Assembly (NCBI GenBank): GCA_040954595.2
Contig: CM082592.2
Coordinates: forward strand, 10,982,017-11,046,016
DNA length: 64,000 nt
Direction of reading: 5' to 3'
From: Balanoglossus misakiensis
Taxonomy: Eukaryota > Animalia > Hemichordata
The notes beneath the pieces are model-generated. The model saw nothing but the letters and a program-made list of their open reading frames with translations. It did not search any database and was not told where the DNA came from. This document shows, in pieces, positions 20,161-59,367 of the stretch (positions within the stretch are counted from its first letter, which is position 1; each line of letters begins with the position of its first letter). A program made the position numbers and the translations under genes.

Positions 20161-22515
20161 GATATAAACTTCAGTAAAGAAATGCAACCGCTTCAGTCCT
20201 GTTTATTGTGAAGGGGCGATTTTGTTCATACCTGAAATGCTGTTGTTCTGTCGTGAAATTCAAAACCCGGCGCGAATGTTTGCGCTTTCAAGTATGTTCT
20301 TTACAAAAGCTCCGCTTTGTCCTTGCTTGCCCAAATGACATTACAATGAAGTAAATGAGTATACCCCCGCACAGCAAACCACAACACCATGTCGTTTGGT
20401 AGTTATGGTGGTTTGTGCTGTATTACGCTGCTACAGTCGTACGTCGCTCGATTCAAGTTGTGAAGCACCATGGTTAAAACCTGTCAAGAGCGAGGTAGAC
20501 GAGTTACAGACAGTCTGTTTTCTAACGGGTTTGGTCACAGCATCAGAGAAAAGGCCGGTTTGAAAGAAAGCATTTAGTTGGACACGGTGCATTTTGGAAA
20601 CATTATGATTGGCGCCTGAACACCAGACAACTAAGAAAAAAATGACAATATTACGTCATGTTGTGAAAACTTGAAACGCCAGGTGAAACGTCACGTGAAG
20701 CAAAGAAAACACATTTCTAATCAGAGTCGATTTATTGACCACCCAACAGTAGTCTGTTTACTCTTTAACTTTCACTTTGACTTAAAACTAAGAAACTCAA
20801 CAAGACAGGAAAGAACAAACACCGACGTTTGTCTGCAGTGAAAATGACTAACGGAGACTAACAAATGATTTTCAATTGGCACAGTTTAAGAACGCCCTGG
20901 AAAAAAACTACGAACAATACTCCTTTGACACGAAGACTTTAAAAGAGAATCGTGGTGGCAAACACTCACAACAATGATTATTGTGAGTGAGTGACCTTCC
21001 CAAGTTACCGTCTGTAGACTGGTTACATTCAGAGAGGGTGTAGGGAAACACAGGCAGATGTTAAATCTGTCTGTCACTCTCTGTGTGTGTCTTTTACGTG
21101 CGCACCTACACATCTGTTTGTTTCCTTCTCCCTCTGCAGTTGCAGGTGTGTATGTTTACATATTGTGCCTCCTTCCAGCACCTGTATTTGCCTTTACCTA
21201 ACCCAACACAATCTTCATGTCCCCCTTCGTCTCTTGTATTTACTTGTATCATTTTGGTTGTCTTTCAACACATCTCTACTACTATCTGTTATCGTTGCCA
21301 CGCAGTCAGTGCGTTATGAAGTTGCTAAGCTGCAAGCATTAATAAGTCTGTTTAGCACAGTTTCAAGATGTCAACAAACAATCGATAAGACAGGTAAATA
21401 CCCTACTCCACAGGTAGTGATAAATGTACGTGCGAAGAAAGCTGGCGAGACGTACCTTACATCATGTACATTGCGACATAAACGTAGAATACTAGTATAT
21501 CATGCAACAAAGGAAAGATTTATGTCAGATAATAGGATGCGGTTGTTGAGAGCAAGCCAACACTTGGTAAATATCGTCAGGTTAATTTAAGGTTAGGGTC
21601 ACGTTGGATGAACTGATTTTTTCATTCGTGTTCTGACCTTTGTCGCAGAAATTGATCACTCCCAAGACCTGCTGGCTCAGTTGTTGTTGTTGTTGTTATG
21701 GGTTGTGTCTCACTGTGAGTTCTGCTTTATGGACTTGAATTAGAATGTGTTCTATCTATAAAGCCTTATGTTGATCTGTATATGTTGTAAAACTGTATCA
21801 TTTGGCAGAGAATAGAGCTGTAACAAGAACTAAAATGTCTTCTTTAAAAATACGCCCCTGAGACAATTCACAGACAGAGATGTGCCTCTTGCAGCCTGCG
21901 GGTATGTCGTAGTTACGCTCTTAACGCTTTGTTGACGACGTACCATGACACAAAGTTTGTATAAAAGGTCACACACTTTGATGAACAGGGATGACGTCAA
22001 TCCACAGACACGCAACACGTGTACACAAGGTGTCTGTTCAGTTTCAAATTAACGATACAATTTGAGGGATTTACAAACACCTGTTTACATTAAAAGGTAT
22101 GCGGTCACCTATGCAAATTTAGCCACTGTGACCGATTTGAGATCACAGATGTTCACTTGGGTGTCTAAAAGAGTGCGCCACCAACAGGTCTTTAGAAGAC
22201 TCATTTTACCTACAATAACCTCATTTACATTTACTAGTTGCTTTTTATTGAGATAATATGCAAGAGAATACAACAAAAGAGTTTATAGTTTGGATCGCTG
22301 GCTGCATACATACTTCTTTCCTATCACCTAGAGTATAAATAAATCATCCATTGGCCTACAAGAGGACTCGGATTAACTTACTTGATTCATATTGTAAATA
22401 TTGTTTTCAATACCATAGTATGTCCGGAAAATTATTGTAAATTATTGACCGATTTGAGACAAGTTGGTCTCTAATTTACAACACTTGGTTCCATCTGGCA
22501 TCGCATTGCATTCAT

Positions 22516-25500
22516 TCAAAGGTCCTCATACCCACAATCCTCAAGTCCTTCAAAATCTTCCATGTTATCAGATGCACTGGTGCTGTCGCTGGTGGCACTA
22601 GCGACCTCTGCAGGATCACTGTCTGGTTGCAGGGCGACCAGGAGTTGGTAATCTTCTGCGGGATGGACGCAGGGTTTCTCCCTTGAGTCACGACGTGTGG
22701 GGCTGGATGGCACGTTAGCAACAGGGGCACGTCTGTTCAGGGCGCCATTCTCACTGGATGTTCCTGTAGCAGAGGGCGCAGTGACGTCGGCCTCTCTCAG
22801 ACACCCATGTATTGGACCACTAACTTGTCGGTTGTCTTGGCTCTGGTTGTTCAGGGCAGCTGGCTGAATTTTAAGTCCACTGATAGGGGACGAATTCGGA
22901 TATGGATAGCCAGGTATACGTTTCAGCAAAGGAACCGTGTTCTCCACATCTTCATGGTCACTCCCATCAAATGTGCTGTTGGATGCCACAGTGCTGCCAC
23001 TATTGAAAACGTCATCGTGTCCTTGCTGGACAAAATCTAGTGGCAGGTATCTTTGTGGAAGACCCTCTTTCACAGCTCCTGCTATATTCGGTTTATCGAT
23101 CTCGAGCGAGTTGCCAAGCAGCGTGTCGATGGACTCCTTGAGTCCACTATGGTTGGCCTCGCAAGACCCGATAGACTGCAGAGAGCTTTCGCTTGATGCA
23201 GCTGACACTGCATCCGCGGAGGATGTCTTCTCCGTGGATTCCAGTGGAATATATCCTTCTACAATGCACGATTCACTAGGGCCTGTCTCTTTTTCAATCC
23301 GAAAGCTTTCTGGTGGCAAATTGTCTTTCCTGGCCATATCCGATTTTCTCCTGTGCGTCACCTCTTCACTGCTGATATTCGCACGTGCAGATGATTTCTG
23401 AGGTTGGTCATCAACTTCTGCAGCTTCCATGCCATCTGCTGGCACGTGCACTTTACTTGGCACAGATTGCCCCGACAGCAGGATGTTCCTCCCACGAACA
23501 TCAGCCACTGTCTGGTATTCATCCAGTGGTGACAAGGGAGACCGAACCCTTGGAATTTGACAGGCAGCACCATTTCCACCCATCGCTTCCATTGAAATGT
23601 ACGCATCACAAACTAATTCATTAGCATTCCTCGGTCCCTTCCCAGTGACGCAGGGATCCTGCAGGAAAGTTCTCTTCGTCTCAGTTTTCGGTCGCGACTG
23701 CGGTAGAAGGGTCCTGAACGAGGCTCTTCTGTCCACCTCGTTCGCTTTCTTAACTGGCATGCTGTCGAACACCTCACGGTTCTCGTCTTGAGATATTCTC
23801 GATGGCGGTTCCTAAGGTGACATTTCACGAAGAAAGACAAATAAGGATATCAGACATTAGTGTACATCGTGATGGTTTAAGTTAAAGCACTCACGACAGA
23901 CTGGAATACGTTCTCTGAAATTTTGTGTTGAATATTCTGTACTAATACCCTTTGACTTACCTCTTCCCACAGAGGTTTTACATGACTAACTTGCTGTAGA
24001 CAGTCCAGTCTCACTGCAAATCTGTAGCAGCATACCACTAAAAGTACCATAATTATAACACCAAGTACCACTCCAATCACTATGACGACGTAAGGCCAAA
24101 CTGTAATTACAATCAAACGCACACTCGAGTTAAAACAATTGCTAGGGGGTCTCCATCACTGAAAGCGAGGTAAAATGTCAGATGGGGTACTTAATGCATT
24201 TGCAGGCGAATGATGTAATTGAATTATAAAGCTTTATCCTTACTCGCTTTTTCGTAACAAATTTCAATGTCATTGCTGACACCTGACGGGCTGTTCATCC
24301 GGTTCAAACTGGATTGTACTTGGCATGTAACTTTGACTGCGTCTGTTGCAATGTCAGTTTCACACCGCGCTGACATCAACATTTCAGTCACACCAACGGT
24401 CTGACCTTCACTGATGATGTCATCTCCAGAGTAACATTCAATGATGTACACCAATTCATCCATTGGCCCATTGGGTCTGAAAGAATGGAGTGGTATGCTC
24501 AGTGTCTTGTACCAATACATCAATGTTCATTATTACAGTGTATATCAAGATTATCAACAAGAAAATATTAGATGGTGCGTGCAATGATTAGAGTTCTCAT
24601 CATTTGATGGTCTGGGAGAAAGCAGTTTCAGAACAAAAGCTTAAAAGAAAAGATAAGCAGACGAGACATGACACTCTACCTTTCTGGTGGTAACCACGTG
24701 ACCTTTATCGTTGAGTCGTCGATCGGAGTCGCTTTCACGTCCACCGGTTGGCTGGGAACTTGTACCACAGAAAAAAAGAATTTAGTCAGATTTGAAAGGT
24801 GTGAAGCATGCCTACACGACAAGCTGTCAAAATGACATAACACTGTGCTAGAGATTTACATCTGGCACTTATAGTATGCGAGTGAAATTGTCCTATGTTT
24901 TTTTTCTATTAAATTGAATTGCACATGCATAAACACGCACCTCCTATTAATGTTGTCGCATAAACTGGATCAGAATACTCCCCGCATGGATCTGGAATCA
25001 CTGCAATGCTACAAGCCTTGACCTTGACTTCATAAGTCTCATATCCACAAAGGTCTTCTATCCTGACACGAGTGTTGGTTGTATTCACAATCTGGTCGTG
25101 GCAGTGTTTGCTATTGTTCTGTGGTTTCACTGTGATCTCATAGTGTGACACGTCATCCTCTATCGTGCCAGGCATGGACCATCTCACTGTTAACGCAGAT
25201 CCACTCACCATCTCCTCTAGAATCTCGACATCTATTGGACGTGCTGGAGCTACAGCCATAGAAAATGTCCACAGTCACATTATCATATATCTTAACATAT
25301 TATGTGGGCATGAATGAGATAATACTAATGGTGAACACGTAACGCAAACATAAAAGAAACCAGTTTGCTATATACCTCCCATGCTGGTCTTAGTCCTTGC
25401 AAATTCTGAACCAGGCCCAACTCCTATGGCAGTCATGGCTGAGATTGACACATCATATTCTGTGTTTGGTGACAGTCCTCTGATGATGTACTTCAATGGT

Positions 25501-28500
25501 AATACACTTGCTTCAACACTGTGTGGCTCCATGACTGTGACATTCACTCTGGTGATGTCATTCCCTGTACACATTATTGGCCGAGTCTGACGAGTGGAAA
25601 CATCCCCATCAACAATGTCCGTCAACTTGAACTGCTTCTGCGGTGGACACGCGGTGATTTGATAGGCCAGGATGATTCCATTTCTGTCGGAGAGGTTCGG
25701 AGGAGTCCATTTGGCTGACAAACTCGAGGGAGACTCTGGGATGGCTTGTAATGTAAGGTTGACAGGCGGTCCAGAAGGAACTGTTAAAGTTTAGAAATCA
25801 AACGCAAGGAATCAAACATAAGCTGAGATCATTATCGTTGTGGCGTCCATATTTGGATTTTTTCTAAGTCCTCTACTCAAATTGTCACATTTCCCTTTGT
25901 TAACATTCTACAATACGTCATTTGCTTGTTTCCATGTCTTACCTCCTTCCATGGTATACTGAGCGATAGTTTGTGAGTAACCACCATAACCAAACGAATT
26001 TTGGGACTGGATTTTGAACTCGTACCGTACAAATGCTTTCAAATCTTGCACGTGGTAACTTTGAACATTGCCGTCGACAGTGACACGATGCCTTTAAAGA
26101 AGAAGAAAACGTAATGACTCATTGGCTTTTAGGCGAGCAGTTTGATATGTAGATGGCACAAAACAATGTTGCATATTTTCGTCTTAATTCGGTGATGATG
26201 ATACCTACCACTGTTTCTGTTCTGTCAGTATTCCATCATCGACTGTGTATGCTAACATATAGGCAACAATGTTTCCATTGGTACTTTCTGGTGGGTCCCA
26301 TGACACAGCTATGGTGTCCTCTGAAGTAGCATTGACTGATGTAATAACAGGAGCACTTGGCGCTGTGGGAAAGTAAAGATGAAGGCTGCAGTGAATGTAA
26401 TGTATTGCCAGAACACCCATAATCAGGTACACACACATATGCATACATACAATTCACAATCTGAAATACGCAATACTTACCACTTGCTTCATCTAATATG
26501 CGAAATGATGCTGGAGGCGAACTCCCTACACTGTTGAATGCGATTACTGTCACTTGATATGAACTGTATCGGTTAATATCTGAAATGAAAACGAATGATT
26601 GTAACTTTTGGTGAGATTTAAAACCAGTTGACCTTTTGAAAATTTTGTTTCTTTTTTTTTCTAATACAATATTTCAAATGAACAACACTTAAGAAACAAC
26701 AACGTGATAAAAACCTGGTATTGTAAACACCGTTATATTTCCATCTTCAATATTCCACTTCAGTGTGTTTGTTGGGTTTCTTTCCTCTTTCACTGTTATA
26801 TTGTACCCTATGATTACTCCGTTCCTCATTCTCCTTGGCGGCAACTGAAGACAAAATTTAAAGAGCGTTACCTCATCACTCGTGTTGATTTATGATTGCA
26901 ATTTCATTTAATTATGACCATAAATAACAATTTTAATCATTATAAGGTGAAGGAGATCTAGACACAACTTTTCAATCTCAATACATATAGACTGCAAACA
27001 TACTGTCCATTCCATGGTAACATCCCTGGTGTTGTCAACGTTGGTTCTGTCGTGTGACAAGTATAACTGGACTCCTCGACTAGGAGCTGAAGTGAAGAGA
27101 AATCAGTGAACATGGAGTCAGTTTACAAGCAAATGCCAATATCAAATACTTGATGAAGTTGACCAGGAGGTGCAACTACTGGAAGGTGCTAGGGTGCATG
27201 TCGAAGGCACGATCAATGTTTACCTGATTCAGAAGTTCTTCCTGACGCAGTGACGGACCATGGACTCCAATCAGCCTCAGATATACCAGTTAACTTACAA
27301 GATACACGGAAATAGTACAATGTGTTCGCCTCCAGTCCATTAACGGTCTTGTCGTTTTTGATAGATATCATTTCTGACTGTAAAGACAAGATTTCCAGAA
27401 GTCAATGAGTCCAATATCTGCGCCCCACACTTCGGTGAATATGCAAGTGTATGTGTGATTTACTGAATCATGATGGTATGTTAACATCCGGGTGTTTTAG
27501 TATAGCAAGCCTGGTGGTGACTACGTCACGTTAAAAGCTCGAAAACTCCTGTTCGCGATGGTAGATCACTGGGGTTTTGTGACAACCAAGTGGTACATGG
27601 TATTACCTGTGTCCATCGGCCCTCTTCCCATTCTGAGTAATACTTTAGCCTGAAGTCTAGAAAATAGGAATCCTGTTTCCAATCAGATGGTGGATCCCAT
27701 TTGATATCAAGAGAGTACTGGTCTCGGTTTATCACTTGAAGGTTTTCGGGTGGGTGAGGAACAGCTGCATACAAAATTTAGAAGTCAAATGTTAAACACT
27801 GTTTTGTGGGGAGAAAACGAATATTCAAAACCCTGCAGAAATATGAAAGTTCAAAGAAGTACTCCTTGTGTTGGAGGTTGAAGACTTACTGTCTGTGTTG
27901 GGAGTGAACCAGATTTCATCACTGGTTTTGTCCAGTGCGTTGATAGCCGTCACTTTCATGCGATACTTGAAATCTAGGTTGACATCTTCGCCGAAATAAC
28001 ACGATGTTTCTTCTTTAGCCACCGAGTTGTTCGGACAAGGGCTCCATTGATTTAGACTTCCACTGTGTGGATTGACAGAAAAACGAAACACAAGAGACTT
28101 TAGTCAGTCACCAAACAGGTTCTACACATTTCGTTCTGAACTTTGTAATAAAATAAACATGAGATGATATTCGTCTAAAAATAGAAGACGTGTCAGACGT
28201 TAACTTACTATGGTCTATATGAAAATTCATATTCGGTGGGTAGGTGACTATCCAATGGATCCCACGTACACCACGTGACAACGATATTGTGAGAAACACA
28301 GGTGAAGTTGTCCACACCGGGCTCAGCTGAAAAGAAGTAAATTGTGATCACAAAGTTTCTCAGACTTGTAGATCTTTGAATTGTTTCACTTGCACATGAA
28401 AACTAAATCAAGGTCTGAACCTATAGCGTCAGTCTATTCTGTGAGTGACAGGCAAAGCCTTGTTCGAATTTCTTTCATATGTTTGAGAGAAAACCCAAGA

Positions 28501-29088
28501 AACATACTTCCTACGGTAACCACTGTGGTTGCCATGTCAACATGTCCGGGTATAGATCCCTCTACAGCGCATGTGTAGTTTCCGGTTTCATCAAGAGTGA
28601 TATCCGTCAGAGTAAGCTCCGATGTGGTCTCGTTGAGGGCAGCATAAGTGTGCTGATTCAGCCGGTTGTCATTGAAATACCAAATCAGATCTTGTGAAGA
28701 GTAGCGGTCAAATGTGTCGATCTCGGACATGCTACATGGTATCGAAATAGTGCTTCCATATTTAGCCACGATGGTTGGTGGCACTAGAAGAGACAGATAT
28801 GAGTTTAATAATTATGATGTTGTTGTTTTTGTTGTGGCAGCTGAAAATTATTTGCCCACACACTGGCGAAGACGACATACTTATTTTACAAAGATTACAA
28901 TACATTAGTTACCTTCTCCTTTCGTATTGTCCACATACTGCAAAATTAACCCCAGCTTGCAATACCATCAATAGTAAAGCAGTTGTGAATCTCCATGGTA
29001 ACATATCCTACTCACCGTGAAGTTTTAACCCGACTGTAACTCCTGCTAAGAAAAGGATCAATGTCGACGACAAAGGCCACTTCGCCAT
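22516..29088 (-). CDS. Class I cytokine receptor A (gp130/Domeless-like): signal peptide, Ig, cytokine-binding module with WSPWS, five FN3, TM, ~450-aa cytoplasmic tail; about 17 exons
   Basis: ATG at 29088 (MAKWPLSSTLILFLAGVTVG). Ig exon ~28510-28784. NFTCVSHNIVVTWCTWDP..HLPTEY (28211-28327). C..C..MKVTAINAL exon (~27889-28062). PHPPENL..WDPPSDW exon (~27607-27764). LEANTLYYFRVSC..DWSPWS exon (WSPWS at 27255-27269). FN3 exons down to 24244. TM exon 23961-24100. Last exon 22516-23811. Confidence 0.92.
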
Positions 29089-32625: not shown

Positions 32626-33788
32626 ATGGATACTTACGAACCGCTTGACGGGAAGAATGGGAAGAACACTCCTCCATCGTGTGGAGAACGTCGTTTCACA
32701 TGGCTGGCTTATGGCTTCCTGATAATTGTGGCAGTAACCATTTCAACAGTGACTGTTTTCGTTACCTTTAGCTGCGTGGATGAATCTCTCAAGCCGACAT
32801 CGATGTGTAAATTCTCTTCAAGGCCGGCGCTCCAACACTTCGCCGAGGTAGTAGAAATTATAAACCCACTTCTTTCCGTCATTCTAGTGACGTACGCATT
32901 GCTGCTTTACCACAGATGTTCGTGTGGATGCTTCCTTCAAATTTGTGGATCTTGCTGCAAAGGACGAAGTGGATGTTACTTACTTTCCAAACTGGGAGCC
33001 TTTTTGAGACTCATCGCCTGTTCGTATTCCTGGGCTCGATCGAGGACAGTATTGATGTTCACCGTTTGCCTGTACAACTTGGTTGTATGTATCGCCAGCA
33101 TGGTCGACTCCCCAACGGCAGTAACACCTTTTCGGTATGCCATTTTGCCTCTGGGGTTGACATCGTGGTATGTTCTCTTGGTCATTTCCAACGAAAAGGG
33201 TCCATTGTCAGCCACCTACGACAACTTCAAGGTCGATCTGTACATCCCAGTGTTGATTTTCTTTGTCGCCTGTCTCACGAACTTCGCCGAGTTCATCATC
33301 GGCACTGTGTACTTAAGTATGAAACTCTATTCCGTGATCTCAAAGACGGGGCATTCCAATGTGCTTCACGCCATGGATATTCTGGGTATGACGGCAAAAG
33401 TTATCCTAAGGTAAGATCAGTTTAGTACCTTCAAGACTTTTGGTAATACAGTCAAACCTGACTATAGTGGCCAGTCAAGGGACTTTCCTAAGCAGGCCTT
33501 TATAGACGATGGCCTTTATTTGTTTCTGCACCGGGACCGTGACAAAAGTGGCCAATATATAGAGAGGTTGCCGGCCACGAATCTTGGTTTGACTGTAGTA
33601 GTAACTGATCGTGTTTCCATTACAGACTCGATTTTACCCAATACTTCTGGCAGATGACCCAGTTCAGTACTTTAGATAAGAAATTATACCCGTATGGAGG
33701 AAAAAGGAAATTACTGAAGGATCTCTGGGAGGATTGGAGGGTCACAGAGGTCACGGTCAAAGCCGCTGAGGTTGAAACTGTTGCTTAG
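32626..33788 (+). CDS. Uncharacterised multipass (~6 TM) membrane protein, family copy 1; exons 32626-33410 and 33626-33788 (alternative ATG at 32560)
   Basis: Family motifs RYAILPLGLTSWYVLLVISNEKGPL, ACLTNFAEF, DILGMTAKVILR|LDFTQYFW, YGGKRKLLKDLWEDW; phase-2 GT-AG intron at the conserved Arg. Confidence 0.88.
33449..33595. mobile_element. Tc1/mariner-pogo-type MITE within the intron of family copy 1
   Basis: Terminal inverted repeats CAGTCAAACC ... GGTTTGACTG flanked by TA on both sides (33447-48, 33596-97). Confidence 0.75.
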
Positions 33789-37336: not shown

Positions 37337-40300
37337 ATGGGACTGATTCATAGGTTAATAATAATCCTGGTTTGGGCTGAAGTCACATTCGCCTTGAAGC
37401 TTCATGGTGAGTACATGTAAATCTGCAGTTTACTGTCTTCATCTAGATGTCATTCACAGGTGCCGTGTTTGAAGTTTGCACCTGAGTATCTTTCAGCCAA
37501 AACTCTTCAACTGCCCTCACCATAAACATTCTGGCTGCTGCCAATTCAATACCCATGGTCCTAACCATAAAAGCTAAAAATAAATTGAAATTGTGAATAT
37601 CCACTTTTTTTTTCAGTCCCACTAAACCTGGTTGCAAGAAACGGGAGTACAGTTTTGATACAGTGCAATATGGAGGAGATGGAATTTTCAGAAAACTACA
37701 CGTCAGAAGATCTGATCTGGTATTTCAAAGGCGAACAGCTAAATCCAAGTATGTTCACGGCCACTAGTGAGACCAGGTCACTACTAACACTGGAGGATAT
37801 CACATTTGAAGAATCTGGAAATTACACATGTGCAATTGAAGATAGTCTGACAAACAGTGTTACAACGGCAAGCACTGTGGTAACAGTTGGAAGTAAGTTG
37901 GTTGTGTTGATGTAATAATGTGATTGTGATGAGATGTGAGAGTTAAGATTTATACCAGTGATGATAAAGTGAGAAAGACTGCCAGCTTAAGGAACTTTAA
38001 CAACTACTGGTACTTGCAAATAATTATTGTGAAGGTTAGGCATTGAACATTATTTGTTTCTTAATTTTCAGCTACCCCTGGTATAGCCAACTTCACCTGT
38101 GTGTCATATAATATCATTGATATGTGGTGCACTTGGGATCCAGTCTACAGCGGGCTGCCAACGCAGTATGAATTTACATATCGACTCTAGTAAGTTTCAA
38201 GTATCACTTCTTTCAAGGAGCTATGACATACCGAGTAGACAGTGGAGGAAACGTCTAAGTTGTGTTTTTGTTGTGTGCATGAATTCTATGTCATTTAACT
38301 TCTGGTGTTTTCAATTCTCCACAGTAGCGACTTCAATGGATGGAAAAGCTGTCCAAACACAACTGCCAAAGGAGAGAATTCGTGCTATTTTGATATTGAC
38401 AGCAATATGGGATCTCGTCATCGAATGAAGGTGACAGCTACCAATGCACTTGGTGAAATCAGAGGGGAAAAATGGTTCAACCCAGATACAGAGAGTGAGT
38501 TTTACTTTTTACCCTCTTTTTAACCCTTTCACCGCCATTGGTTTGGTCCACCCCATTCTTCTCAATGGCAGTGCTGGACATTTCTACAGGGAACTGGGGG
38601 TGACAGGGTTGTAATTTGTGGATATTTTGTGCCATTAATTTTTTATGGAATCTTGAATATGATTGAGATTATAGTTGTAACAGTTATGTGCTCAATACAT
38701 GTATGTTGATTAGCTGCATACTGACTCTTCTGTATTTAACCATAACCAGAATTTCTCCTTTTTCAGCCATTCCGCATCCACCAGAAAATGTACAGGTGAT
38801 AACAAAGAGCAGTGACTCTTTAATGATCACCTGGATGCCTCCGTCTGATTGGTACACCAACATGCTCTTTCTTGAATATAAACTTCAGTATTCTAACGAG
38901 TGGGAAGAGGGCCGATGGTCAAAGGTAGAGATCCGACACCACAGAATAATCAATCCATGCACTCACAGACATCTCTTCCCCCCACTGTTGTGTCCTTTCC
39001 ACTGTGGGTTAATAATTCATCTGGTGTTCTTTTTTTCATATATCTCTCCAGCCATACCATTTCCTCCTGATAACGTGCGCATCTCACATCAAAGCGCTAA
39101 CTCTTTCTTGGTAGTGTGGGGAGTGCCTCGTAATTGGTATACAGACTACTACCGACTAAAGTACAAATTGCAGTATGTGAGCGAGTGGGAGACTAGTTGG
39201 TCACAGGTACCCATCATTCATGCTACATGTATAATGATCATTTTTAATGTTCTTTGGCTGTGTAAGCTTGCATGAATAACCCAACCATGTTACAGCTGTG
39301 GTCGTTCTAGTGTTGTAGCGAGTTGATTATAAAGTGTTGCAAATCCCTCTGATTCTTTTCTGAAACAGAACTTCCTGCTGGCGTAGTCTAGGCATCTTGC
39401 AACTCTTTTGAGTGGCCAGTACTGTAATGCTAATCTCACCTTGAGTGTGTGACATCTGCAATTGTAGTTACCTTACTTGTTAACTGATAGCCTGTACAGG
39501 GCATGCACGCAGGAATAACTGAATAATGCCATGGAAACACAAATGTCTGCCACAGTAACTTCTTACAAGGCGAATAAGCTAACTGATGCAAAATATAATT
39601 CCCAAATAACCATTAAATCACCTTAGAATATCTAAAAATGAAAAAACAACACAATCCTGATAATTCAAAGTACCTCTCTTTCAAACCAGCATGTATACAA
39701 TATTTAGGTCTGTCATACAATACTGGCTAACTTTTCTAAGCTTATGACTAGTTCTGCCAATGGCAGCTAATGTATACATGACAAGATATTTGTTTTCATC
39801 CATCCTCACTAATACACGTACATGTACCTGTCTCCATACTGTGTCAGAACACAAAATGGCCGCTCAGAGAAATTCAGTCACACTTTCGGTACAGGCTACA
39901 GCTTTTTGCGGTTCTTCCATTCTTTTGGTTTTGGTTTTCCTGGCAACTGCTTGTGTCTGTCCCGTTTAACCCTTTCACCCCCAGTTCCCTCTTTAGAGGT
40001 CCAACCTTACCATAGAAAACAATGGGTTTGGACTGAACCATGGTGGTGAAAGGGTTGATTCCATTGAAAATTAGACTAGAAATCAATGTTCTACCAAGAA
40101 AGACGTTTTTTCCATCTTCTAATCAGTGAATATTTCTCTTTTGATCACTTGTCATTTTGCGGGATGTTTTATAAGGATGATAAGGTATGGCTGTATTATT
40201 CGGATTTTTATTTTTCGTGTCACCAAGTTACATTTCAAAGCCACTGAATTGACACCACTGAAATGGACTAGGCTTTCTAGTACATGATCTTGAACTACTT

Positions 40301-43300
40301 GCCTGACTCTCTTAATTGCTGATTAACATACTCTGTTTACTAATATCTGCTTTCTCGGTGTCTTTATCTCAATTTCTTTTTCTCCGCTGCCAACCCTGCC
40401 TCCCTTGATGTAACAGATGTTATTCAGCCTTACCAATGAGAAGGGTGTTAATGGTCTCTTGCCCTACACAAACTATATTATCCGTATCGCTACACAGCCA
40501 GCTGCCATATTTACAGATTTGTGGAGTGAATGGGCGTATGCCACTGGACGCACATTGGAGTCAGGTATAGCCTACAGATATAGATCCTTAATTTGTTTCC
40601 TCATGTTATTTTGTTTTGCTTTTTTCTTTTCATTTTTTTTATATTATATGTGATCAGTTCCCAATTATCGACAGAAAAAGGAATTATATGGCTGTAGGGC
40701 TAGAGAGTCACACGCTGTATTATTTCCAAGTCTCTTGTCAACCGACTGCTGGAGATGGACAATGGGGTGAATTCTCTGTCTCTGCTTCCGGACGAACCAG
40801 AGAATCAGGTAGACCTGCGCAGTACAGTACATCTACACCAGTGTTCTACAGAGCACCGAATGAACATACACCCTTTCCGCAAGTCTAGTGCCCTCATGCA
40901 CCCGTCATGAATTTGTTGTTGCCCCCGGATGGCTAGAAGCTGTCGCTAATCTTTGGCAATATGAACGAAATCTTGGAGAAGGCATTTGGAACACATACTA
41001 TGTTGTGCGAATGTGGCTTTATCTGTTCCATAACACGTGCAATGTGGAGCATATTCACAGCAATGGCACACATTTCTGAACTTTGTTCTGATTACAATCC
41101 ACTTTTGTTTTACTGACAGCTCCAAGTCAAGGCGTGCAGCTGCACCTGATGCAGGAACAAGTCAACACAAACAATCCGGATTTCAGAGATGTTACAATAG
41201 CATGGATGGTATGTCCTCGCGATTCCCATTATCGCTTGGCATGTTGAGTGCTTTCTGTTGGTTGTTCGATTTTTTCAGGGTTTGTTGAGAGTTGGAATTT
41301 TTGGTGTATGTGTGTGTACATGTACATTGTATGTTAAGTGTTTGAGGAGAGATGTTGTTAGTGTTTTAAATTCCCTGTTTACTTAGCAGTATATGTTTTG
41401 TCCTTGTCTTCAGTTGCCACCAAGGAGACAAAGAAATGGCATCATCATTGGTTACAACATCACAGTGAATGATGAAAGAAACCCCGACAACACTCAGAAA
41501 TGGAATATAGAAGATGGAAATGTGACCATGTTCACAATACCAGGTAAAACGACAGCAACATTGATTTAATACTTGATCCTTGGTAGAGGTTGATCAGTGA
41601 CTTTGATGATATAGCAATCTTCTCTGTTACTCATTCATTAATTTGTTTTTTCAGATCTACACAGACTCAAGTCATACCAAGTGTCTGTAATTGCATTCAA
41701 CAATGCAGGGAAGTCACCTTCAGCTTCATTTCGCATATTAGATCAAGCAGTTGGTAAGAAATAATAACATTCATAATTTTTGTTTTCATTTTGAGAGCCT
41801 TGGTTTCAGAAGATGCGTATTCCTTGAAAATCACATTGACAATAAGGGACATGTCCAAATAACAACCTTCTTTACTTCTTTAATAACCAACAGCCCCCAA
41901 GGCTCCTATCATAACAAAGGTAAAAGCTCTTACAGAAGACACCATAGTTATGTCATGGGACCCACCAGAAAGTGACAATGGACAAATTGTTGGTTATGTG
42001 TTAGCATATGCAGCTGACGATGGAATACTGACAGAGCGAAAACAGTGGTAGGTGAATTTTCACTTTTACATGACCAGTATTTACGTCTTGCATCGTTTTT
42101 ACAGTTTAAAAAATCCAGAGACCTGGTGTATTTAATATTCTTCTGTGTTTTGCAGGAAACATATTGAAGTTGAGGGCTCTGTACGCAGTTACCATGTCAG
42201 AGATTTGGAAGCATTTGTGCAGTACGAGTTCAAAGTTCAGGGCAAGAGTTCAGTCGGTTATGGTGGCTACTCACAGACAGTTACTCAATATACCATGGAA
42301 GGAGGTAAGAAAGATAATGCAGAAAAGATCTGAAATGTTGATCCACCCTAATATGCAGTGACACTGATGTCAATATGATTCTCATTTCAAAACACTTCAT
42401 AAATCTCAATGTTTGGTTTTCACTTCTGTCACAGTTCCTTCAGGTCCGCCTTCCAACATCACTCTGCAATCCATGCCTGAGTCTCCATCCAGTTTGTTAG
42501 CTGAATGGAATCCTCCGAACCTCTCTGACAGAAATGGAATCATCCTTGCCTATCAAATCACAGTGTGTCAACCACAGAAGCAGTTCAAGTTGACGGACAT
42601 TGTTGATGGGGATGTTTCCACTCGTCAGACTCGGCCAATAATGTGTACAGGGAATGACATCACCAGAGTGAATGTTACAGTCATGGAGCCACACAGTGTT
42701 GAAGCAAATGTCTTACCATTGAAGTACATCATCAGAGGACTGTCACCAAACACTGAATATGCTGTGTCAATCTCAGCCATGACTGCTGTAGGAGTTGGAC
42801 CTGGTTCAGAATTTGCAAGGACTAAGACCAGCATGGGAGGTACCTAGCAAACTGTTTTCTTTTATGTCTGCGTTACGTGTTCACCATTAGATACTCGTTC
42901 ATGCCCACATAATATGTTAAGATATATGATAATGTGACTGTGGACATTTTCTATGCCTGTAGCTCCAGCACGTCCAATAGATGTCGAGATTCTAGAGGAG
43001 ATGGTGAGTGGATCTGCATTAACACTGAGATGGTCCATGCCTGGCACGATACAGAATGACGTGTCACACTATGAGATCAAGGTGAAACCACAGAACAATA
43101 GCAAACACTGCCACGACCAGATTGTGAATACAACCAACGCTCAAGTCAGGATAGAAGATCTTTGTGGATATGAGACTTATGAAGTCGTGGTCAAGGCTTG
43201 TAGCATTGCAGTGATTCCAGATCCATGTGGGGAGTACTCTGATCCAGTTTATGCGACAACATTAATGGGAGGTGAGAGCCAAAATAGCCATATGGTTAAA

Positions 43301-46203
43301 GGTTTACGGTCACGTGTAATGTACATATGCCCACTGTATATATGGTCAAATCTCTGATTGGCTATTTTCCGAGGGAACAGTGGTTATAGGAGATCATATA
43401 CCTTTAACCCAGAATTCACAGCTGTCATCAGGGAGTTGGGGGGGGGGCGCTTTCTGTGATAAAAGACTAACAAATATTTTTATTTTCTATATTTTATAAT
43501 AGTGTCTTTTATCTTTTGATTTTAGAACCAGGCCAACCACTGAATGTGAAGGCAGTTCCTATGGATGATTCCAACATAAAAGTTATGTGGTCACCACCAG
43601 ACAGGTACACTGCTATCATCTGTATTTAATCTAAATTTTGTATCTCCATAAGAAGTAAAATGTTAGCCATGAATTTATTGGGATGGTTCTGTGGAAAACA
43701 TGTGCAATATATGAAAATTCAACTTAATCCTGAAACCAGGGAAAGTGTGGTTGTATAATTTTGTTTCAAAGAATTTCCAGACACTCAGCTATATGCACAT
43801 TCTTGTGATTTTCTTTCAGACCCAATGGGCCAATGGATGAATTGGTGTACATCATTGAATGTTACTCTGGAGATGACATCATCAGTGAAGGTCAGACCGT
43901 TGGTGTGACTGAAATGTTGATGTCAGCGCGGTGTGAAACTGGCATTGCAACAGACGCAGTCAAAGTCACGTGCCAAGTTCAATCCAGTTTTAACCATATA
44001 AACAGCTCATCAGTTGTCAGCAATGACATTGAAATTTGTTACAAAAAACAAGGTTGGTGGAAATTGCTAGCTTATTTTATAGATTTCATTTCAGTTCACT
44101 TTTTTTGAGTGGTTTAAACATTCAGCATGAATTTAAAATATTTATTGTTTGTTTTGTTTTCACTACAGTATGGCCATACATTGCTATCATACTTGGACTT
44201 GTTGCTGGTATTGTGTTAATTGCTCTTGGACTTGTTAAATGTTACATGTGGGCCAAAACAAAAGGTCTTTGTGCAAAAGTGAGCCATGCCAAACCATTGT
44301 GGGACGCAGAGGTGAGAACAAAACATTTACATTTGTAGATCCTAAGAATTAGAACAGAAACAGCCATACTTTAAGGAGTTACACAAAGTAAATATTCCAT
44401 GTTCTTATGAGCAATATATTATAAATACAGCTTCATATTTTTCCCTCTGTTTTGTAGATTCCAAACATTATGCCTGAAAGAAATGATCGTGAAGTGTTTG
44501 ACCTGTTGCCATCTGTACAAATAAAGGACAATTTAAAAAGGAAAGAATCCAGCAGCACAAATTCTGTAGCTTCTGATGTTGGAGTGGAGGCTGACAGTGG
44601 ACAACCTCTTCTGCAGAAACCGGTAAGTGAGAGGAAGCAACCACCAACTGCAGTGAGGGTGAAAGTTGGAGGGGATGGCTACATTGCAAATGAGGCGGAC
44701 AGTATAAAAGGTGCGGTTTTTGTCAAACCAAAGCCAAGACCTCTGGCAGCAGTCAGTGATGAGTATCGTACGGTGGCTGAAGTAAATGGCAGAAGTGTTC
44801 TTCTGCCCCAAGAACGTGAAGCGAACAGAGCTGATGTTGATAGAGAAGGACTAAACAAGGCTGGAAAACTTGGCACGAAGGGAAACATGAAAGTGGAAGG
44901 TGAGAGACCTTCTGGACAGCGTTGGGGAAAGGCAAGCATGAAAAGTCCAGCAGTAGGGATCACTCAACCTTTGATTCCTGGCATAAAGAACATGCATACA
45001 GATCCTGCCCTGGATTCATATGTTCAACATGGTGCAGACTTGGGCAAGTTGCCTTTGCCAAGTGTCCCAGTCCAAATGGCGCTGGCTGCCAATGGCTTTC
45101 AAGTTGGAGAAGCAGATCGTGTAAGATCAGCGAATAAGAATATGCCTCCAGATGTGGAAAGTCTTCAGAAGCAAAAGAGCAGACAGGCACCATTCGGATG
45201 TGCGGATGCGTTCGGTTCAACTAACAACCAGCCATCCAGGCAAGTGAGGCGTACACCACTTGGAAATTCACAGGAATATCAACCACACAATTTCCAACAA
45301 GAGAGCCAGTTCAGTGGTGGTGAGCAGTCCCCTTCTACAAGTGGCAGTTCCATAGACTCTAATAATACATTTGATGCTGACTGTAAAGCAGGCGAGAAGA
45401 GTGTGGACACTATAATCCTACCAGACACAAAGGTTGCTCCAGCTGGAAAATCTGACTGCATTTCAAACCAGGACTACCTTCTCATTGAAAGCATCCCAAA
45501 GGGATCTGGACAGGAGAACGACTATGCAGCTGAGAGTAGTGTCAGTGAGACGTCTGATGGTACAGAAGATGAGAGTGACTGTGAAGATATAGATAACACC
45601 ATCACACCCTTACTGAAGTGCACTCCTGATGGTGGTCATTCAGAGCCACGATCAACCACATCCACAGAGTCGGTAAGTAGCAGCCTTGACCAACCAAATG
45701 CAAGAAAGGCCCACAAACAGCAGCAGCCATCCTCCCTTCATCAGGAGTGTCCGAGAGAGAACTGTGCTGCCACAAGCAGAAGAGACTGCCAACCTACAAA
45801 TGAGGCAAGATCCAACCAAGTGCCACCGAAAGCATCTTCACACACTTGTGAATTCCCACAGGACACTGACAATTTGAGTTGTCTGGCTCAAGATTATCAA
45901 CCCTTGGACACTTATGGACAAGACGTCCAAGAGGACAGAGAGAGCATTACAGGATCCAGTACTTATACAGACGAGGCCACAGACCTAGAAGACTTTGATT
46001 ACAGACTGTCACCGTTAAATGGAAGCCCTAGGCATGTGCAGAGGGAACCACAACCAACAGAACCAGAAATTGAGGAATATCTTCACCTGAGTTGTCTTCA
46101 AGGAGGAACCGACGGAGATGATATCAGTGTAACAAGTGACAGTTCAATGACTTCTGCCAAGTCTTCTGAAGTCCTTGATCCTGGCTATGTACCGAATACA
46201 TAG
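37337..46203 (+). CDS. Class I cytokine receptor B (paralogue of A) with duplicated alternative exons in the WSxWS domain
   Basis: ATG 37337 (MGLIHRLIIILVWAEVTFALKLH). Exons 37617-37892 (Ig), 38072-38190 (NFTCVSYNIIDMWCTWDP), 38325-38494, 5a 38767-38924 / 5b 39052-39206, 6a 40417-40564 / 6b 40658-40808, 41120-41208, 41414-41543, 41655-41753, ~41894-42048, 42156-42304, 42434-42839, 42963-43271, 43526-43604, 43820-44052, TM 44169-44311, last exon 44458-46203. Confidence 0.92.
38520..38610 (+). mobile_element. ~90-bp piggyBac-like MITE, copy in intron 4 of receptor B
   Basis: TTAACCCTTTCACC ... GGTGACAGGGTT termini; homologous to the copies at 39966 and 46907. Confidence 0.65.
39966..40058 (-). 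mobile_element. ~90-bp piggyBac-like MITE, inverted relative to the 38520 copy
   Basis: TTAACCCTTTCACC ... GGTGAAAGGGTT; its reverse complement aligns to 38523-38610 (ccatggtt..gtcca..ccatt..ggaactgggggtga). Confidence 0.7.
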
Positions 46204-46906: not shown

Positions 46907-46996
46907 CACCCTTTCACCACCATGGTTTGGCCCAAATCCATTGTTTTTATCGTAAATTTGAACCTCTCTAAAGGGAAATGGGGATGAAAGGGTTAA
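46907..46996 (+). mobile_element. ~90-bp piggyBac-like MITE; more decayed relatives probably at ~6260-6350 and ~13900-13965
   Basis: ACCCTTTCACCACCATGGTTTGG ... GGGGATGAAAGGGTTAA. Confidence 0.65.
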
Positions 46997-47699: not shown

Positions 47700-49466
47700 T
47701 CAGGCTTGCTCCGCTGTCGACAATGTTCCGTAATTTTTGCGACTCCCGCGGGGCACGGACCCCTTCCCCTCTCGAATGCCACTTGGCCAATTGCACGCTA
47801 ACTGACGGTGACCGTTCAGTCCATGGCCGTCTTCTACTGTCTTCAGCTGTCTGCGCAACCCGTCACTTTTCTCCGACAGATGTGAGTCGACGCGTGAAGC
47901 GCTCTCTGTACCCATGGCAACTAAGACTTGATCTCCTGTGCGCGTGATTTCTTTAAGCTCAAATCTATTGCTTGTACTGTCGTTTGAACCAAGATTCCAT
48001 TGAGTTTTGCCAACGTATAGTCTGCACGGTGTTGCTGTCTCCTCTGTTTCTGATTCGGTTATTTGATCTGGCCAGTCTTCCCATGTATCTTTGATCAGCT
48101 TGTAACTCCCGCCATATACTTTTCTCTTCTTGCTCAAGACTGTCATGTTCCAAAAGAACATGGCAAAGTCGAACCTATAGAAAGAGTTACAGAAACCATA
48201 ATGCACGGGGTAGATAAAACCACAATAACTGACATAATCAATCAGTAACAGTTATTCCAGTTGAATAAATTCTTTCCCACGTTTCTTGAGCTGACTATCT
48301 TGTTCATGACTATCTGTCCTTGCCCAAACTTGCATACATCAATAGCAACCCGCGTTAAAGCATTGGCACAACTTCTAATTACTGTATTCTGCTTGTTAAA
48401 CGAAAAACAAAAGTTTAGTTTCTCTTTGTACAGAAAACCGGTTACGTGTGCATGTAGTTTGCCTATGTGTACAAAATATTCCATCGTGGTGTTATGTAAC
48501 ATATCTATTGCAACGCGACTTTAGGTCAAGGCCCTTTCTGAAACAATGGGCGTGGCAGTCCTTGATTACAATGTTACGTAAGCCATGGCAAGCTCCATGC
48601 ATAGACTTGACTTAATGGCGTGCACTCAAAAAAAATATTGTCTTTCATATTGATAATGTATCTGTGTGTAACAACACTCGAAATCTAAAAATGGATTGGC
48701 GATAAAATTACTTGATGAGTGCAAAATTTTAAGTGAAAATTACACGTGTATAGCGCTGAATAGACAACGTGCATATTTACCTAAGGGCGATGGTCGCTGT
48801 CATTCCGACTGCATCAAATACGTTCACTAAGTTCTCATCTTTACCAAAAGCGCTCCACAGTGGTTTGGTGATATAAACTGTCACTAGCATGAACTCCACG
48901 AAATTGGAGAGGCTGGCGAAGAGATAAACGGCCCACGAAAGCAGTCCGATGCAACAGGGTCGACGGGCGTGGTAGATCCACGTCAGTGGGCCTTTCTCGT
49001 TGGCCAGCACCAACAGCAGGAACCAGCCAGTCACTCCAATCGGCAGGAAGAGGTACCTCTCCGGGCGGTGGTGCAAGAAGGAAGAATCTTGCAAGTAGAC
49101 GAAGACGTGGTAAATTATTACTACGATGAGTATAAAGAATCGCTTCAAACACCAACCATACTGGAAGCATTTCAACACCGAGTCCCATCGGCATCTACCA
49201 GTAGGGCAGTAAACATACAACAATGCAACAAAGACTACGACCATTGCAGAGGAACACGGCCCAGCCACCGCCAAGGTTTTCGAGTAATCACTCCATTCTG
49301 TACTATTGGAGAAATCGCACTTGGCATCAGTCTCATCCGTTTCCAGGCAAGTCAATTCTAAAAATAATTGGGCGATTGAGGAAGCGGCTGTCAGGACCAA
49401 AGTGCCAGAAGTCAGTGCCCACAACAGTTTGTAGCATCGCAGTCCCGGAGAATTCTCCTCAGTCAT
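47700..49466 (-). CDS. Uncharacterised multipass membrane protein, family copy 2; exons 49466-48781 and 48174-47700
   Basis: ERYLFLPIGVTGWFLLLVLANEKGPL, ASLSNFVEF, DAVGMTATIALR|FDFAMFFW, VYGGSYKLIKDTWEDW, C-terminal NYGTL. Confidence 0.9.
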
Positions 49467-50565
49467 TTTCGGTAGGTGCCTTTTCGGTAGCTTGTGATTC
49501 CAGTTGTACAGACACTTGTATATCCGTGCTGGTAGATGAGTAAAACGATTTCTCGCTTAGTCCGTCAAGATGAAATTAGTCTGTCCAGCGCTCCCGACTT
49601 TGAAAAAAATACCATGACTAACGCCGCAGTTAAAATGAAGAAATATTCATCCCTTGTTGGCCTGTTCGCCCTCGGGCTTTCAAATGCATTCTTTTTTTCC
49701 CGACCACCTATATCACGTTTCACTGTCACGTTTCCAAAACAGTAGTTGCGTAAGCATGAACTTGACCTCGACTCAACTATTTTAGTGATGGGTGGGGTCG
49801 ATTTATAAGGCTACAAATCTTCAACGGCCCAAATGCGGTCACTCTACAAAATACCATACTTGAACTTTTTTGGCTTCACGGTTTCTGGTTTTATCATGGT
49901 CTCGTCGATCATATTTGCAAAGATCAGCAGAAAATTTACCAGAATCGAATATCCGGGCCAGGCTTAGTAACAGTCACGGTCCCCATTGCATGCATTGTCC
50001 CCATTCAACAGTTAGTCTGAGGTCAATCAGAGGATTGATGCGCGGTAATTAATTGCTATTGTTATGTAAAGTTGCCGTTAATGACTTTGTTTTGAGCCAA
50101 TCTCTTGTGAACTACTGTTGTATCTGTTGGCATACATTAACGTTTACTCTGGGACAACAAAAACTGTTACCGCCTTTGACAAATTCGAATTCGCCCCGAT
50201 GTATCGTAATTTATTCTTCTCCTTTTACAGAGAAGCTGCAACTTCGGTCCCACATACAAAGTACATGACGCCCGCACGCGACGCTGAGACCATAATTGTT
50301 CTTCATTCACAAAACAAGGTTGACGCACGTTGGAGCTATTCAAAGGCATCGGTGACCGCTGACCCCGTACGTTCCCCAACGCGGCGACAGCTAGTCAGGA
50401 ACCGAAACAAGGATGTAAGTTATTTTGTTGTTTGCATATTTCCAATTTTAGAAACCACTAAACGTGGTCATTTACTGATATCTCTGTACTGATATTTACT
50501 GTACACGTTGTACGCCCTCTTGAAAAATATCTGAACGATGATTTCAAAAGAGACCGGTCAAGCGT

Positions 50566-51692
50566 TCAAATTGAAGCAGGTGTGGTCCCTGTACTTCCAT
50601 AACGTGCATGAACTGTTGTTGTCTGCGGTGAAACTGCGTCGGGAATATTTTGCGGTAGCGTCGGCGGTGGCAGCTGCGTGCTACTGTTTGAATTTCTTCT
50701 CTCTTGTCCGCGGGCAGACCGGTCATCATACTCATCCCAGTTGTCCCAACGGTCGCGTAGCAACTTCCTGCTGCCGCCATATTCTTTATTTTTGAGGCTG
50801 AGTATCGCCATGTCAAAGAATTCGATTGTAAAGTCAAACCTGGAAGGGGACAGGAGGCTATTTTCAAATCAACTTGAAATGGATCTACTGTAATTGTATG
50901 ATATTAATTCTATATCTAGTCTTCATTCTGACTCGCCGTTTTAGCCTGTCAGCCTGAAACTATTATTATCGTAGCTTACCTCAAAGCAATAGTCACTGTC
51001 ATTCCCAGTGTGTCATAAACGTGCCCATTTTCCGAAGATATAATCCAAATCGTCTTGGTTATGTAGACAGTGACAATCGCAAACTCTGCCGCGTTTGTCA
51101 AGGAGGCGAAGAGAAACATGAAGAAAGACAAATATTTTGCTAGGCGGCGTTGTAATCCTCTTGCAGCCCAGGTCAGCGGACCGTTCTCATTGGAGATGAC
51201 CAGAAGCAAGAACCAGGTGATCACTCCAAACGGCAAGACTATGTACCGTTCACGCCCGTGGACACGATGCGCAGCGTGTTCGGACGCCGCGTATACATTG
51301 ATGTAATAAGCCACGACAAATGCAAGTGGAAGAACACGCTTCCAGAACCAACTGTAAGTGACCACGGAAAACCAACCCAGACCATCACATGTCCCTCTCG
51401 ATTTATCGCATATCACGTAATAAATAACGCACAGAGTTACCACGACCACCGATAAAACGGGTTCGAAGATCTGAATGTCTGGCGCAAACTTTTCATACAG
51501 CAACGCCGCCGTGTCGTTCGCTTTGGTCACATTGCAATTCACGTTGGCGAAGTCTTGCTTCAAACATTCGATTTCGACGCACACCTCCAGGGAGGCGAAT
51601 AGACCAGCAGCGATCAGCGAAACAGAGAAGAAAATCTCGATTATTAGCAAGAATACACCAAGGCATGTTACAGGCACTAGTATTTCCGCCAT
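50566..51692 (-). CDS. Uncharacterised multipass membrane protein, family copy 3; exons 51692-50980 and 50839-50566
   Basis: ERYIVLPFGVITWFLLLVISNENGPL, ASLTNAAEF, DTLGMTVTIALR|FDFTIEFF, EYGGSRKLLRDRWDNW, C-terminal RYGST. Confidence 0.88.
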
Positions 51693-52241
51693 GCTGTGAT
51701 TTTTTCTGGCTTCCACTGCCGCAGTGTCTGCACACAGTCCCTATATCACAGCCTGAGGGCCGTGGTGTGTGGTTCTTGCACGGTCTTCTTTGTGTGTATC
51801 GTCCGCTCTCATTAGACCGACCGATTACTGTCCTCCACGGAGAGTAAATAGACCCTGGCAGGCAAAGATATGTTTGGAAGGACCGCGGTCCAGGCACGAT
51901 TTACCTGTTTTATCATGATGTAATATGTGGGCATTCACCATTCTCATTCTCATACCACATCTTCACCAAACGATGACAAAATGAAACACTTGTGTGACGA
52001 TGTTTAAGTTTGCAGACGACTATTCCAAGGAGTTTCCAAAACGTAATTTTGCTGATCGACAATAGTCAAAAGTATGAAAAATCGGCAAGTTTACATCAAC
52101 ATGAATTGATTTAATACTTGACGCCCCCACTCATATTGGTTTAACCTCAGGTTGTATTTATTGTGGGTCAATACTGTGGGTGTACCTTTTCAGTCACCTT
52201 TTCATATACGACCGATATGTGTGGGCTAAACACTGGTGATT

Positions 52242-59304: not shown

Positions 59305-59367
<63 letters not shown>

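Follow-up and report, generated by a model that had tools for sequence, protein, structure and literature searches.

Mutually exclusive exons are an established means of ligand switching in the FGF receptors. In chordate FGFR1-3, the tandem IIIb and IIIc exons are spliced in a mutually exclusive manner, encode part of the ligand-binding domain and alter ligand affinity (PMC5703972). Two other described systems bear on how such a choice can be enforced. One is the steric exclusion imposed by distant branch points, as reported for OGDH exons 4a and 4b (PMC7969005), and the other is the docking site-selector mechanism known from Dscam exon 6 and, with downstream docking elements, from 14-3-3zeta, Mhc and MRP1.

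The receptor gene described here, receptor B, lies in a 64,000-nucleotide window of the acorn worm Balanoglossus misakiensis. Like FGFR1-3, it is a single-pass receptor in which tandem duplicated exons encode part of the predicted ligand-binding domain. FGFR1-3 are kinase receptors with one exon pair, which lies in an Ig domain, whereas receptor B, a class I cytokine receptor, has two adjacent pairs that supply both halves of one FN3 domain, probably in a 2x2 combination. An earlier note on this DNA likened the arrangement to FGFR IIIb/IIIc or to Dscam; the FGFR comparison is the closer, and the Dscam comparison overstates the scale. That note knew of no comparable system in a gp130/Domeless-type receptor. 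Our literature search likewise found no description of one, and no report of ligand switching by mutually exclusive exons in a class I cytokine receptor. The locus holds two adjacent pairs of old duplicated exons, and we think it likely that every transcript uses one of each pair. The WSxWS domain would then come in as many as four versions, which are predicted to bind different cytokines or partner receptors.

A gp130-like receptor gene and its four probable alternative exons

Receptor B (37337..46203, forward strand) is modelled with 17 exons per transcript. The protein has a signal peptide, an Ig domain, a cytokine-binding module of two FN3 domains (D2 and D3), five further FN3 domains (a count taken from the model of a Ptychodera flava paralogue), one transmembrane helix and a tail of about 600 amino acids, the ectodomain and single helix being those of a class I receptor. 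It shares with gp130 the common Ig-CHD-FN3-TM layout (as described in PMC1963337) and the four D2 cysteines, has what may be a degenerate WSxWS-type motif, and gp130 is the best PDB sequence match of its profile (E 5.5e-29). The cysteines (C-x9-C-x-W and C-x10-C) are present in B and in all ten aligned rows. In B this motif reads WSEWA in exon 6a and WGEFS in exon 6b; the exact WSxWS form occurs in the neighbouring paralogue, receptor A, and P. flava, Glandiceps and Saccoglossus have it in their 6b exons. In predicted structures, the cytokine-receptor fold is shown for two combinations, 5a+6b (AlphaFold pLDDT 90) and 5b+6b (pLDDT 73-94 per block over D3), with Foldseek TM-scores of about 0.8 against gp130-family chains. 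Unlike gp130, which has D4-D6, receptor B has its five membrane-proximal FN3 domains, carries the duplicated D3 exon cassette and is without a canonical Box 1 or YxxQ. The transmembrane helix is followed by conserved residues of the type V(S/G)HxxP(L/I/V/F)W(D/E), which do not show the canonical Box 1 proline pattern. YxxQ is absent from the B and A tails and occurs in just one of nine tails examined; we therefore call the receptor gp130-like rather than gp130 proper.

The first half of D3 (strands A-C, including the BC loop) is encoded by exon 5a (38767..38924, 158 nt) or by its alternative, exon 5b (39052..39206, 155 nt), both on the forward strand and both running from phase 1 to phase 0. 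The second half is encoded by exon 6a (40417..40564, 148 nt), with the FG loop and WSEWA, or by exon 6b (40658..40808, 151 nt), with a Cys in strand F and WGEFS; these are also on the forward strand and run from phase 0 to phase 1. All four exons lie where the earlier note had placed them, with AG before and GT after, and each has one open frame encoding the peptide ascribed to it. Each pair consists of homologous exons in tandem, similar in length and equal in phase, that are incompatible when joined, as expected of a mutually exclusive cluster. The note had also predicted that splicing both members of a pair together would shift the frame, and all five tested paths of this kind stop, at residue 285, 350 or 351. 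The four one-plus-one paths give proteins of 1,490-1,492 amino acids in the 17-exon model, and among the tested paths that use these exons only one exon 5 with one exon 6 preserves the frame of about 1,490 amino acids. Two further in-frame outcomes had been missed: joint skipping of exons 5 and 6 in the receptor B model, and retention of the 127-nt intron between 5a and 5b, which is read without a stop. Stop-free, in-frame retention of that intron has about a 5% expectation by chance. Its product would escape decay, and would count against strict exclusivity.

The extra copies might not be alternatives at all, but pseudo-exons, or exons that enter the same transcript by way of a retained intron or of different splice sites. 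The in-frame read-through from 5a through the intron into 5b favours this, as does a Saccoglossus model, described below, that joins 6a to 6b. However, translation of the retained intron gives sequence of polypyrimidine type, its retention would place two first halves in one domain, and the four exons are as conserved as the constitutive ones. Identity to their own counterparts in the P. flava RefSeq isoforms is 60% for 5a, 65% for 5b, 53% for 6a and 48% for 6b, all within the 39-72% seen for constitutive exons 1-16 against P. flava, and it is because each exon matches its own counterpart within this range that we do not regard the four as chance. Within the window, pN (0.30-0.44) is below pS (0.64-0.85) in all six exon pairs, the in-window dS being saturated in three of the six, and every alternative exon is under purifying selection. 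As 12 of 13 models in related genes are also one-plus-one, we consider it very improbable that the copies are not alternatives.

Exon combinations in acorn worms and the age of the cassette

RefSeq isoform models usually rest on aligned transcripts. When all four exons were sought in related species, as the note had proposed, they were present among the RefSeq models of P. flava, in the gene that matches B and is closest to it, where XP_070571800-03 are 5a+6b, 5b+6b, 5a+6a and 5b+6a, respectively. A second P. flava gene has models for three of the four combinations (5a+6a, 5a+6b and 5b+6b), and a Glandiceps gene has 5a+6a and 5a+6b. The Saccoglossus cassette gene holds both 6a and 6b, and 5b is absent from the three Glandiceps models and two Saccoglossus models of the cassette gene. 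Across these four genes (two from P. flava and one each from Glandiceps and Saccoglossus), 12 of the 13 distinct models contain a single exon 5 together with a single exon 6. In the exception, Saccoglossus XP_077868244.1, 6a is connected to 6b by a linker of 7 residues that keeps the frame; as annotated, this model would count against strict exclusivity. The models of related acorn worms thus agree with the mutually exclusive use and 2x2 set that had been proposed for B. They contradict the suggestion that 5b and 6a form a coupled module, for 5b+6b and 5a+6a are both annotated in the two P. flava genes, and 5a+6a in Glandiceps as well.

It could be that all four exons are functional and only some pairings are used in B. 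misakiensis, or that the RefSeq isoforms partly reflect rare junctions, leaving two or three main forms. The incomplete sets in the second P. flava gene and in Glandiceps speak for such a restriction. All four junctions are nevertheless modelled in the gene closest to B, and single-form paralogues are annotated with differing pairings (5a+6b, 5a+6a and 5b+6b), so we hold restricted pairing to be the less probable case, if a serious one.

Trees of exon 6 separate a from b with support of 95/99 and 94/96 and put the duplication, as reconstructed, before the split of these acorn-worm genes. AU tests reject a separate exon-6 duplication in each gene for all four genes (p 0.0005-0.046). At exon 5, per-gene duplication is rejected for the 5a and 5b of the window (p 0.006); for the two P. 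flava genes the tests do not reject it (p 0.07 and 0.31), and the 5b clade is weakly supported (62/84 and 84/85).

Receptor A (22514..29088, reverse strand; 17 exons, about 1,340 amino acids) lies head-to-head with B and, as had been noted, has a single exon for each half of D3: a 5a-type exon 5 (27607..27764) and a 6b-type exon 6 with WSPWS (27224..27377), both on the reverse strand. That A most resembles 5a and 6b is upheld by the tree, but not by identity at exon 6, where the DNA of A shows the same 60% identity to 6a as to 6b.

Beyond the acorn worms, three brittle-star receptors were found, each as a single model only. Long FN3-repeat proteins predominated among the matches to cluster representatives, of which 150 were listed and six new full-module ones were followed up. 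Frog gp130 isoforms X2-X4 were rejected as a parallel to the cassette because they differ by an insert, and none of 138 pattern matches to related loci in metagenomes was confirmed.

Splice-site geometry and an intronic antisense stretch

If each transcript keeps one exon of each pair, exclusivity would probably be enforced in the first place through frameshift and decay of double-inclusion products. At 6a/6b a branch point lying too close to the donor of 6a would contribute. The 6a-6b intron (40565..40657, forward strand) is, at 93 nt, the shortest of 34, with an AG-free zone of 72 nt; candidate branch points lie 27 and 39 nt away from its donor. The 5a-5b intron (38925..39051, forward strand; 127 nt) has an AG-free zone of 81 nt and a candidate 41 nt from the donor, and the AG-free zone upstream of exon 6a (134 nt) is the longest among the 34 introns. 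A short intervening intron, a long AG-free zone and branch-point candidates less than about 50 nt from the donor are all features of OGDH 4a/4b, although the branch points in receptor B are motif-based guesses, and ordinary candidates close to the acceptor are present too.

At 5a/5b, exclusivity is possibly aided by an antisense stretch of about 130 nt in the 5b-6a intron (40085..40215, forward strand), able to pair with the start of only one of the two exons at a time. Positions 40169-40193 are complementary to 39049-39073, the acceptor and start of 5b, at 21 of 25 nucleotides, 40091-40103 to 39102-39114 in exon 5b at 13 of 13, and 40136-40158 to 38785-38809 in exon 5a. The computed duplexes reach -54.6 kcal/mol with 5b and -44.9 kcal/mol with 5a (0 of 200 shuffles in each case). 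They have 25 nt of the stretch in common, so that the computed complementarities overlap and are mutually exclusive, as in docking site-selector systems. Also as in those systems, a single downstream intronic element matches both duplicates at homologous positions, which is what the duplication model set out in PMC6071210 predicts. What it would pair with here, however, is not an activating intronic selector but the acceptor and 5' coding half of each exon; pairing would thus mask rather than activate, and we do not count the cassette as a docking site-selector member. The stretch is a candidate for either a competing mask or an inverted relic of exon 5.

The chances seem to us evenly balanced that it is simply a decaying inverted copy of exon 5 with no part in splicing, exclusivity then resting on frameshift decay and splice-site geometry. 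Its reverse strand begins at CAG and reads IPYHPY, like the start of exon 5, co-linear with 5a, and it was noticed after the fact among 91 inverted pairs. A mere relic is harder to reconcile with the pattern of its matches, which favour 5b at the acceptor and over +51 to +63 and favour 5a over +19 to +43. Moreover, 5a and 5b are saturated at synonymous sites (pS 0.79), and in an old copy free of selection such matches would be expected to disappear.

For exon 6, no antisense element was found in the 5b-6a intron, 148 of 300 and 268 of 300 shuffles being as good. Three other structures were set aside. A hairpin that would join the 6a donor region to exon 6b looked good by alignment (0 of 200) but not on folding (z +0.45, fifth in rank among 34 introns). 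The hairpin spanning the 6a acceptor is not unusual (z -1.0), and the inverted 89-nt repeat around 5a-5b is a short, self-folding, mobile-type repeat with a third copy at 46908-46996.

Predicted cytokine or partner choice

The exons may be mutually exclusive and the switch still act mainly on the partner of D3 (B/B, B/A or a soluble alpha chain) rather than on the cytokine. As described for the IL-11 complex (PMC10662374), the key gp130 ligand loops, residues 142-147 and 164-172, are in D2, and the site-IIB contact is between D3 of IL-11Ralpha and D3 of gp130, which makes partner choice a live alternative. D2 is constant across the alternative forms of receptor B, and acorn worms have several receptor paralogues as well as a short form of 367 amino acids. 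Against this, F230, D275 and L277 of IL-11Ralpha, which we place in D3 by their numbering, are cytokine contacts in the same account. The BC loop ends in Phe in all six 5a-type exons and in Arg in all four 5b-type exons, and this is the clearest site that tells a from b. We therefore entertain a switch that is mainly one of partner, but think it somewhat unlikely.

If the BC loop is set by exon 5 and the FG loop by exon 6, as we suppose, free combination would alter both D3 loops at the binding elbow. A fuller scenario, which we offer as speculative and rather doubtful, is that this free combination gives four cytokine-receptor specificities from one gene, that the choice at exon 5 is made by a single intronic antisense mask, derived from an inverted exon copy and covering the start of 5a or of 5b, that the cassette is ancestral to the acorn-worm receptor family and later duplicates froze single combinations, and that annelids arrived at a similar switch independently.

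In our preferred reading, of two old exon pairs each contributing one exon per transcript, a 2x2 cassette would rebuild a whole predicted binding domain from interchangeable halves. The four natural variants of one ectodomain could serve as baits for acorn-worm ligands, and the splice forms can be compared directly with paralogues whose annotation has a single, fixed combination. For exon choice by masking, the antisense stretch offers a small, mutable candidate. Such a cassette would give an invertebrate deuterostome a means of diversifying cytokine signalling without new genes.

Alternative exons of a gp130-like receptor

Receptor B, a gp130-like gene (37337-46203, plus strand), carries the two pairs of alternative exons that the earlier note had placed there. 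Exons 5a (38767-38924) and 5b (39052-39206) encode the first half of D3, which with D2 makes up the two FN3 domains of the cytokine-binding module, and 6a (40417-40564) and 6b (40658-40808) encode its second half; all four have AG/GT ends, with lengths of 158, 155, 148 and 151 nt, respectively. We translated 12 splice paths through a 17-exon model. The four paths with one exon 5 and one exon 6 all gave 1,490-1,492 residues, and the proposal that including both members of a pair would shift the frame held in each of the five double-inclusion paths tested, which ended at a stop at residue 285, 350 or 351. An early stop also followed the use of 5a alone or 6b alone. Omitting exons 5 and 6 altogether (38494 to 41120) kept the frame and would leave a receptor without D3, a double skip that was seen in none of the RefSeq models examined. 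The 127-nt intron between 5a and 5b is in frame and stop-free if retained, a loophole in exclusivity; 776 of 5,000 shuffles of this intron were stop-free, or about 5% with frame counted. Receptor A, the head-to-head paralogue (22514-29088, minus strand), has a single exon for each half of D3, as had been reported.

The nearest proteins to receptor B are those of the acorn worms Ptychodera flava (exon identity 39-72%), Glandiceps talaboti and Saccoglossus kowalevskii; the identities to P. flava mark the window as coming from another species. A ten-row profile of the D2-D3 module had gp130 as its best PDB match (E 5.5e-29), and the AlphaFold model of a P. flava 5a+6b module (mean pLDDT 90) matches chains of IL-11Ralpha, the prolactin receptor and gp130 with TM-scores of about 0.7-0.8. 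Modelled at full length, a P. flava paralogue of 5b+6b type comprises an Ig domain, D2, D3, five further FN3 domains and a TM helix; D3 has a pLDDT of 73-94 per block, and the overall mean is 65 because the tail is disordered. Measured against the canonical forms of YxxQ and Box 1, neither motif was found in the tail of receptor B, and we therefore call it gp130-like, not gp130. Among Glandiceps paralogues, the tail of XP_077981990.1 has about 15 repeated DDY(L/T/S)RV tyrosine motifs, and the isoforms of another differ in their cytoplasmic tails, which are either long or very short, possibly including decoy forms.

The window also holds a family of four two-exon genes for predicted membrane proteins (32629-33767; 47703-49556 and 50547-51740, both minus strand; 53038-54404), one of them between receptors A and B. 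They have a common YGG..K.L..D.W.DW-type end and no Pfam match over the cut-off. Elsewhere lie an ASB-like ORF with ankyrin repeats and a SOCS-box (979-2406, plus strand), a long ORF with a ubiquitin-like domain and ankyrin repeats (15450-17543, minus strand), exons of a cobalamin-binding protein (59305-60206, plus strand) and an 87-bp tandem array of 44 copies with 98% matches (60165-64000), which continues past the window end.

Exon use and history among acorn worms

Five isoforms of the P. flava gene nearest to B are in RefSeq, X1 with 5a+6b, X2 with 5b+6b, X3 with 5a+6a, X4 with 5b+6a and X5, a model that begins at 5b; the four combinations are already present in RefSeq, unnamed. Identity of the window exons to their own type in P. 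flava, versus the other type, was 60% versus 44-46% for 5a, 65% versus 51% for 5b, 53% versus 35% for 6a and 48% versus 30-32% for 6b. RefSeq models of a second P. flava gene have 5a+6a, 5a+6b and 5b+6b, and those of the Glandiceps cassette gene have 5a+6a, 5a+6b and one form with a shortened 6b. In the Saccoglossus cassette gene, one model has 6a only and one joins 6a and 6b in frame via seven residues, which we take as a putative prediction artefact. One exon 5 plus one exon 6, in keeping with mutually exclusive use, was the pattern in 12 of 13 distinct models, all automated RefSeq predictions. Single-form paralogues differ in their pairing: receptor A is 5a+6b, checked on the DNA, and by annotation only, one Glandiceps gene is 5a+6a and one Saccoglossus gene 5b-like+6b.

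In exon-6 trees the a and b copies are separated without exception, with support of 95/99 (13 rows) and 94/96 (12 rows). The split was weaker in a 21-row tree that included brittle-star outgroups, in which Saccoglossus 6a falls apart from the other 6a copies. AU tests on a set from which nine rows for other paralogues had been dropped rejected independent duplication of exon 6 in all four genes (p 0.0005, 0.010, 0.003 and 0.046). For exon 5, a clade of the window's own 5a and 5b was rejected (AU test, p 0.006), the corresponding clades of the two P. flava pairs were not (p 0.07 and 0.31), and support for the 5b group ranged from 62/84 to 84/85; the duplication history of exon 5 is less clear than that of exon 6. 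pN was 0.30-0.44 and pS 0.64-0.85 in all six in-window exon pairs.

In a tree built from the constant parts, cassette-bearing genes occupy three of the four deep branches of acorn worms, and the two P. flava neighbours group together, apart from B and A, at odds with the exon trees. The likely cause is gene conversion between neighbouring genes, proposed because exons 12, 13 and 15 of A and B are 92-95% identical, versus 53-80% elsewhere; recent conversion is likewise likely in the stalk of these two paralogues. The three exons lie at 42435-44052 in B and 25780-24244 in A, which have intron stretches in common there too, and the ligand-side exons of the two receptors are 53-71% identical.

Candidate means of exclusion

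Transcripts that include both members of a pair would probably be removed by frameshift and subsequent decay. Splice-site geometry is a second candidate means. AG-free zones before 6a, 5b and 6b are 134, 81 and 72 nt long, ranking 1, 2 and 5 among 34 introns (median 38). Within the 93-nt intron between 6a and 6b, branch-point candidates at 27 and 39 nt lie closer to the donor than the steric limit of about 50 nt that is given in a section of PMC7969005, and ordinary candidates near the acceptor are also present.

A third candidate is a stretch of the 5b-6a intron (about 40085-40215) that is antisense to the starts of both 5a and 5b. When the first 70 nt of each exon are matched to the entire intron, 5b scores 30 (0 of 500 shuffles; first of 34 exons), and 5a scores 26 (10 of 500 shuffles; second, tied with exon 11, whose match falls elsewhere in the intron). 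Duplex energies with the stretch, which was picked after the match was seen, are -54.6 kcal/mol for 5b and -44.9 kcal/mol for 5a (0 of 200 stretch shuffles each), with 25 nt common to the two duplexes; energies for exons 6a, 6b, 4 and 7 were unremarkable. When 38700-40900 is folded, 40184-40215 pairs at probability 0.95-1.0 with the acceptor of 5b and the donor of 5a. The reverse strand of the stretch opens like an exon 5, and an inverted relic of that exon is an equally good reading of the stretch. A role in splicing is a tentative suggestion, which we hold slightly less probable than its opposite. As a splicing element, the stretch would resemble the downstream docker born of exon duplication that is described in part of PMC6071210; unlike that docker, it would mask the exon it pairs with. 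A MITE-like palindromic repeat of about 90 nt occurs in three copies (38522-38610, 39965-40058 and 46908-46996), two of which flank 5a-5b in inverted orientation.

Predicted consequences for the receptor

Exon 5 encodes strands A-C of D3 and the BC loop, and exon 6 the remainder, with the FG loop and WSxWS. A residue at the end of the BC loop is Phe in all six 5a-type exons and Arg in all four 5b-type exons. A strand F Cys is present in five of five 6b exons and absent from that column in four of five 6a exons; in the fifth, it is one place off its class pattern.

The nearest working analogy is FGFR IIIb/IIIc, as outlined in excerpts of PMC5703972. Full-text literature searches, which took in few subscription papers, brought up no account of mutually exclusive exons for a receptor of gp130/Domeless type; a Saccoglossus receptor is listed in a portion of PMC13203501 that leaves isoforms unmentioned. 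For the IL-11 complex, passages of PMC10662374 give 142-147 and 164-172 as the key gp130 loops, F230, D275 and L277 of IL-11Ralpha as cytokine contacts, and a contact between gp130 D3 and IL-11Ralpha D3. The exon cassette of receptor B is real, old and combinatorial; its function and the RNA mask are predictions and, by analogy with the IL-11 contacts, swapping D3 could change the ligand, the partner or both.
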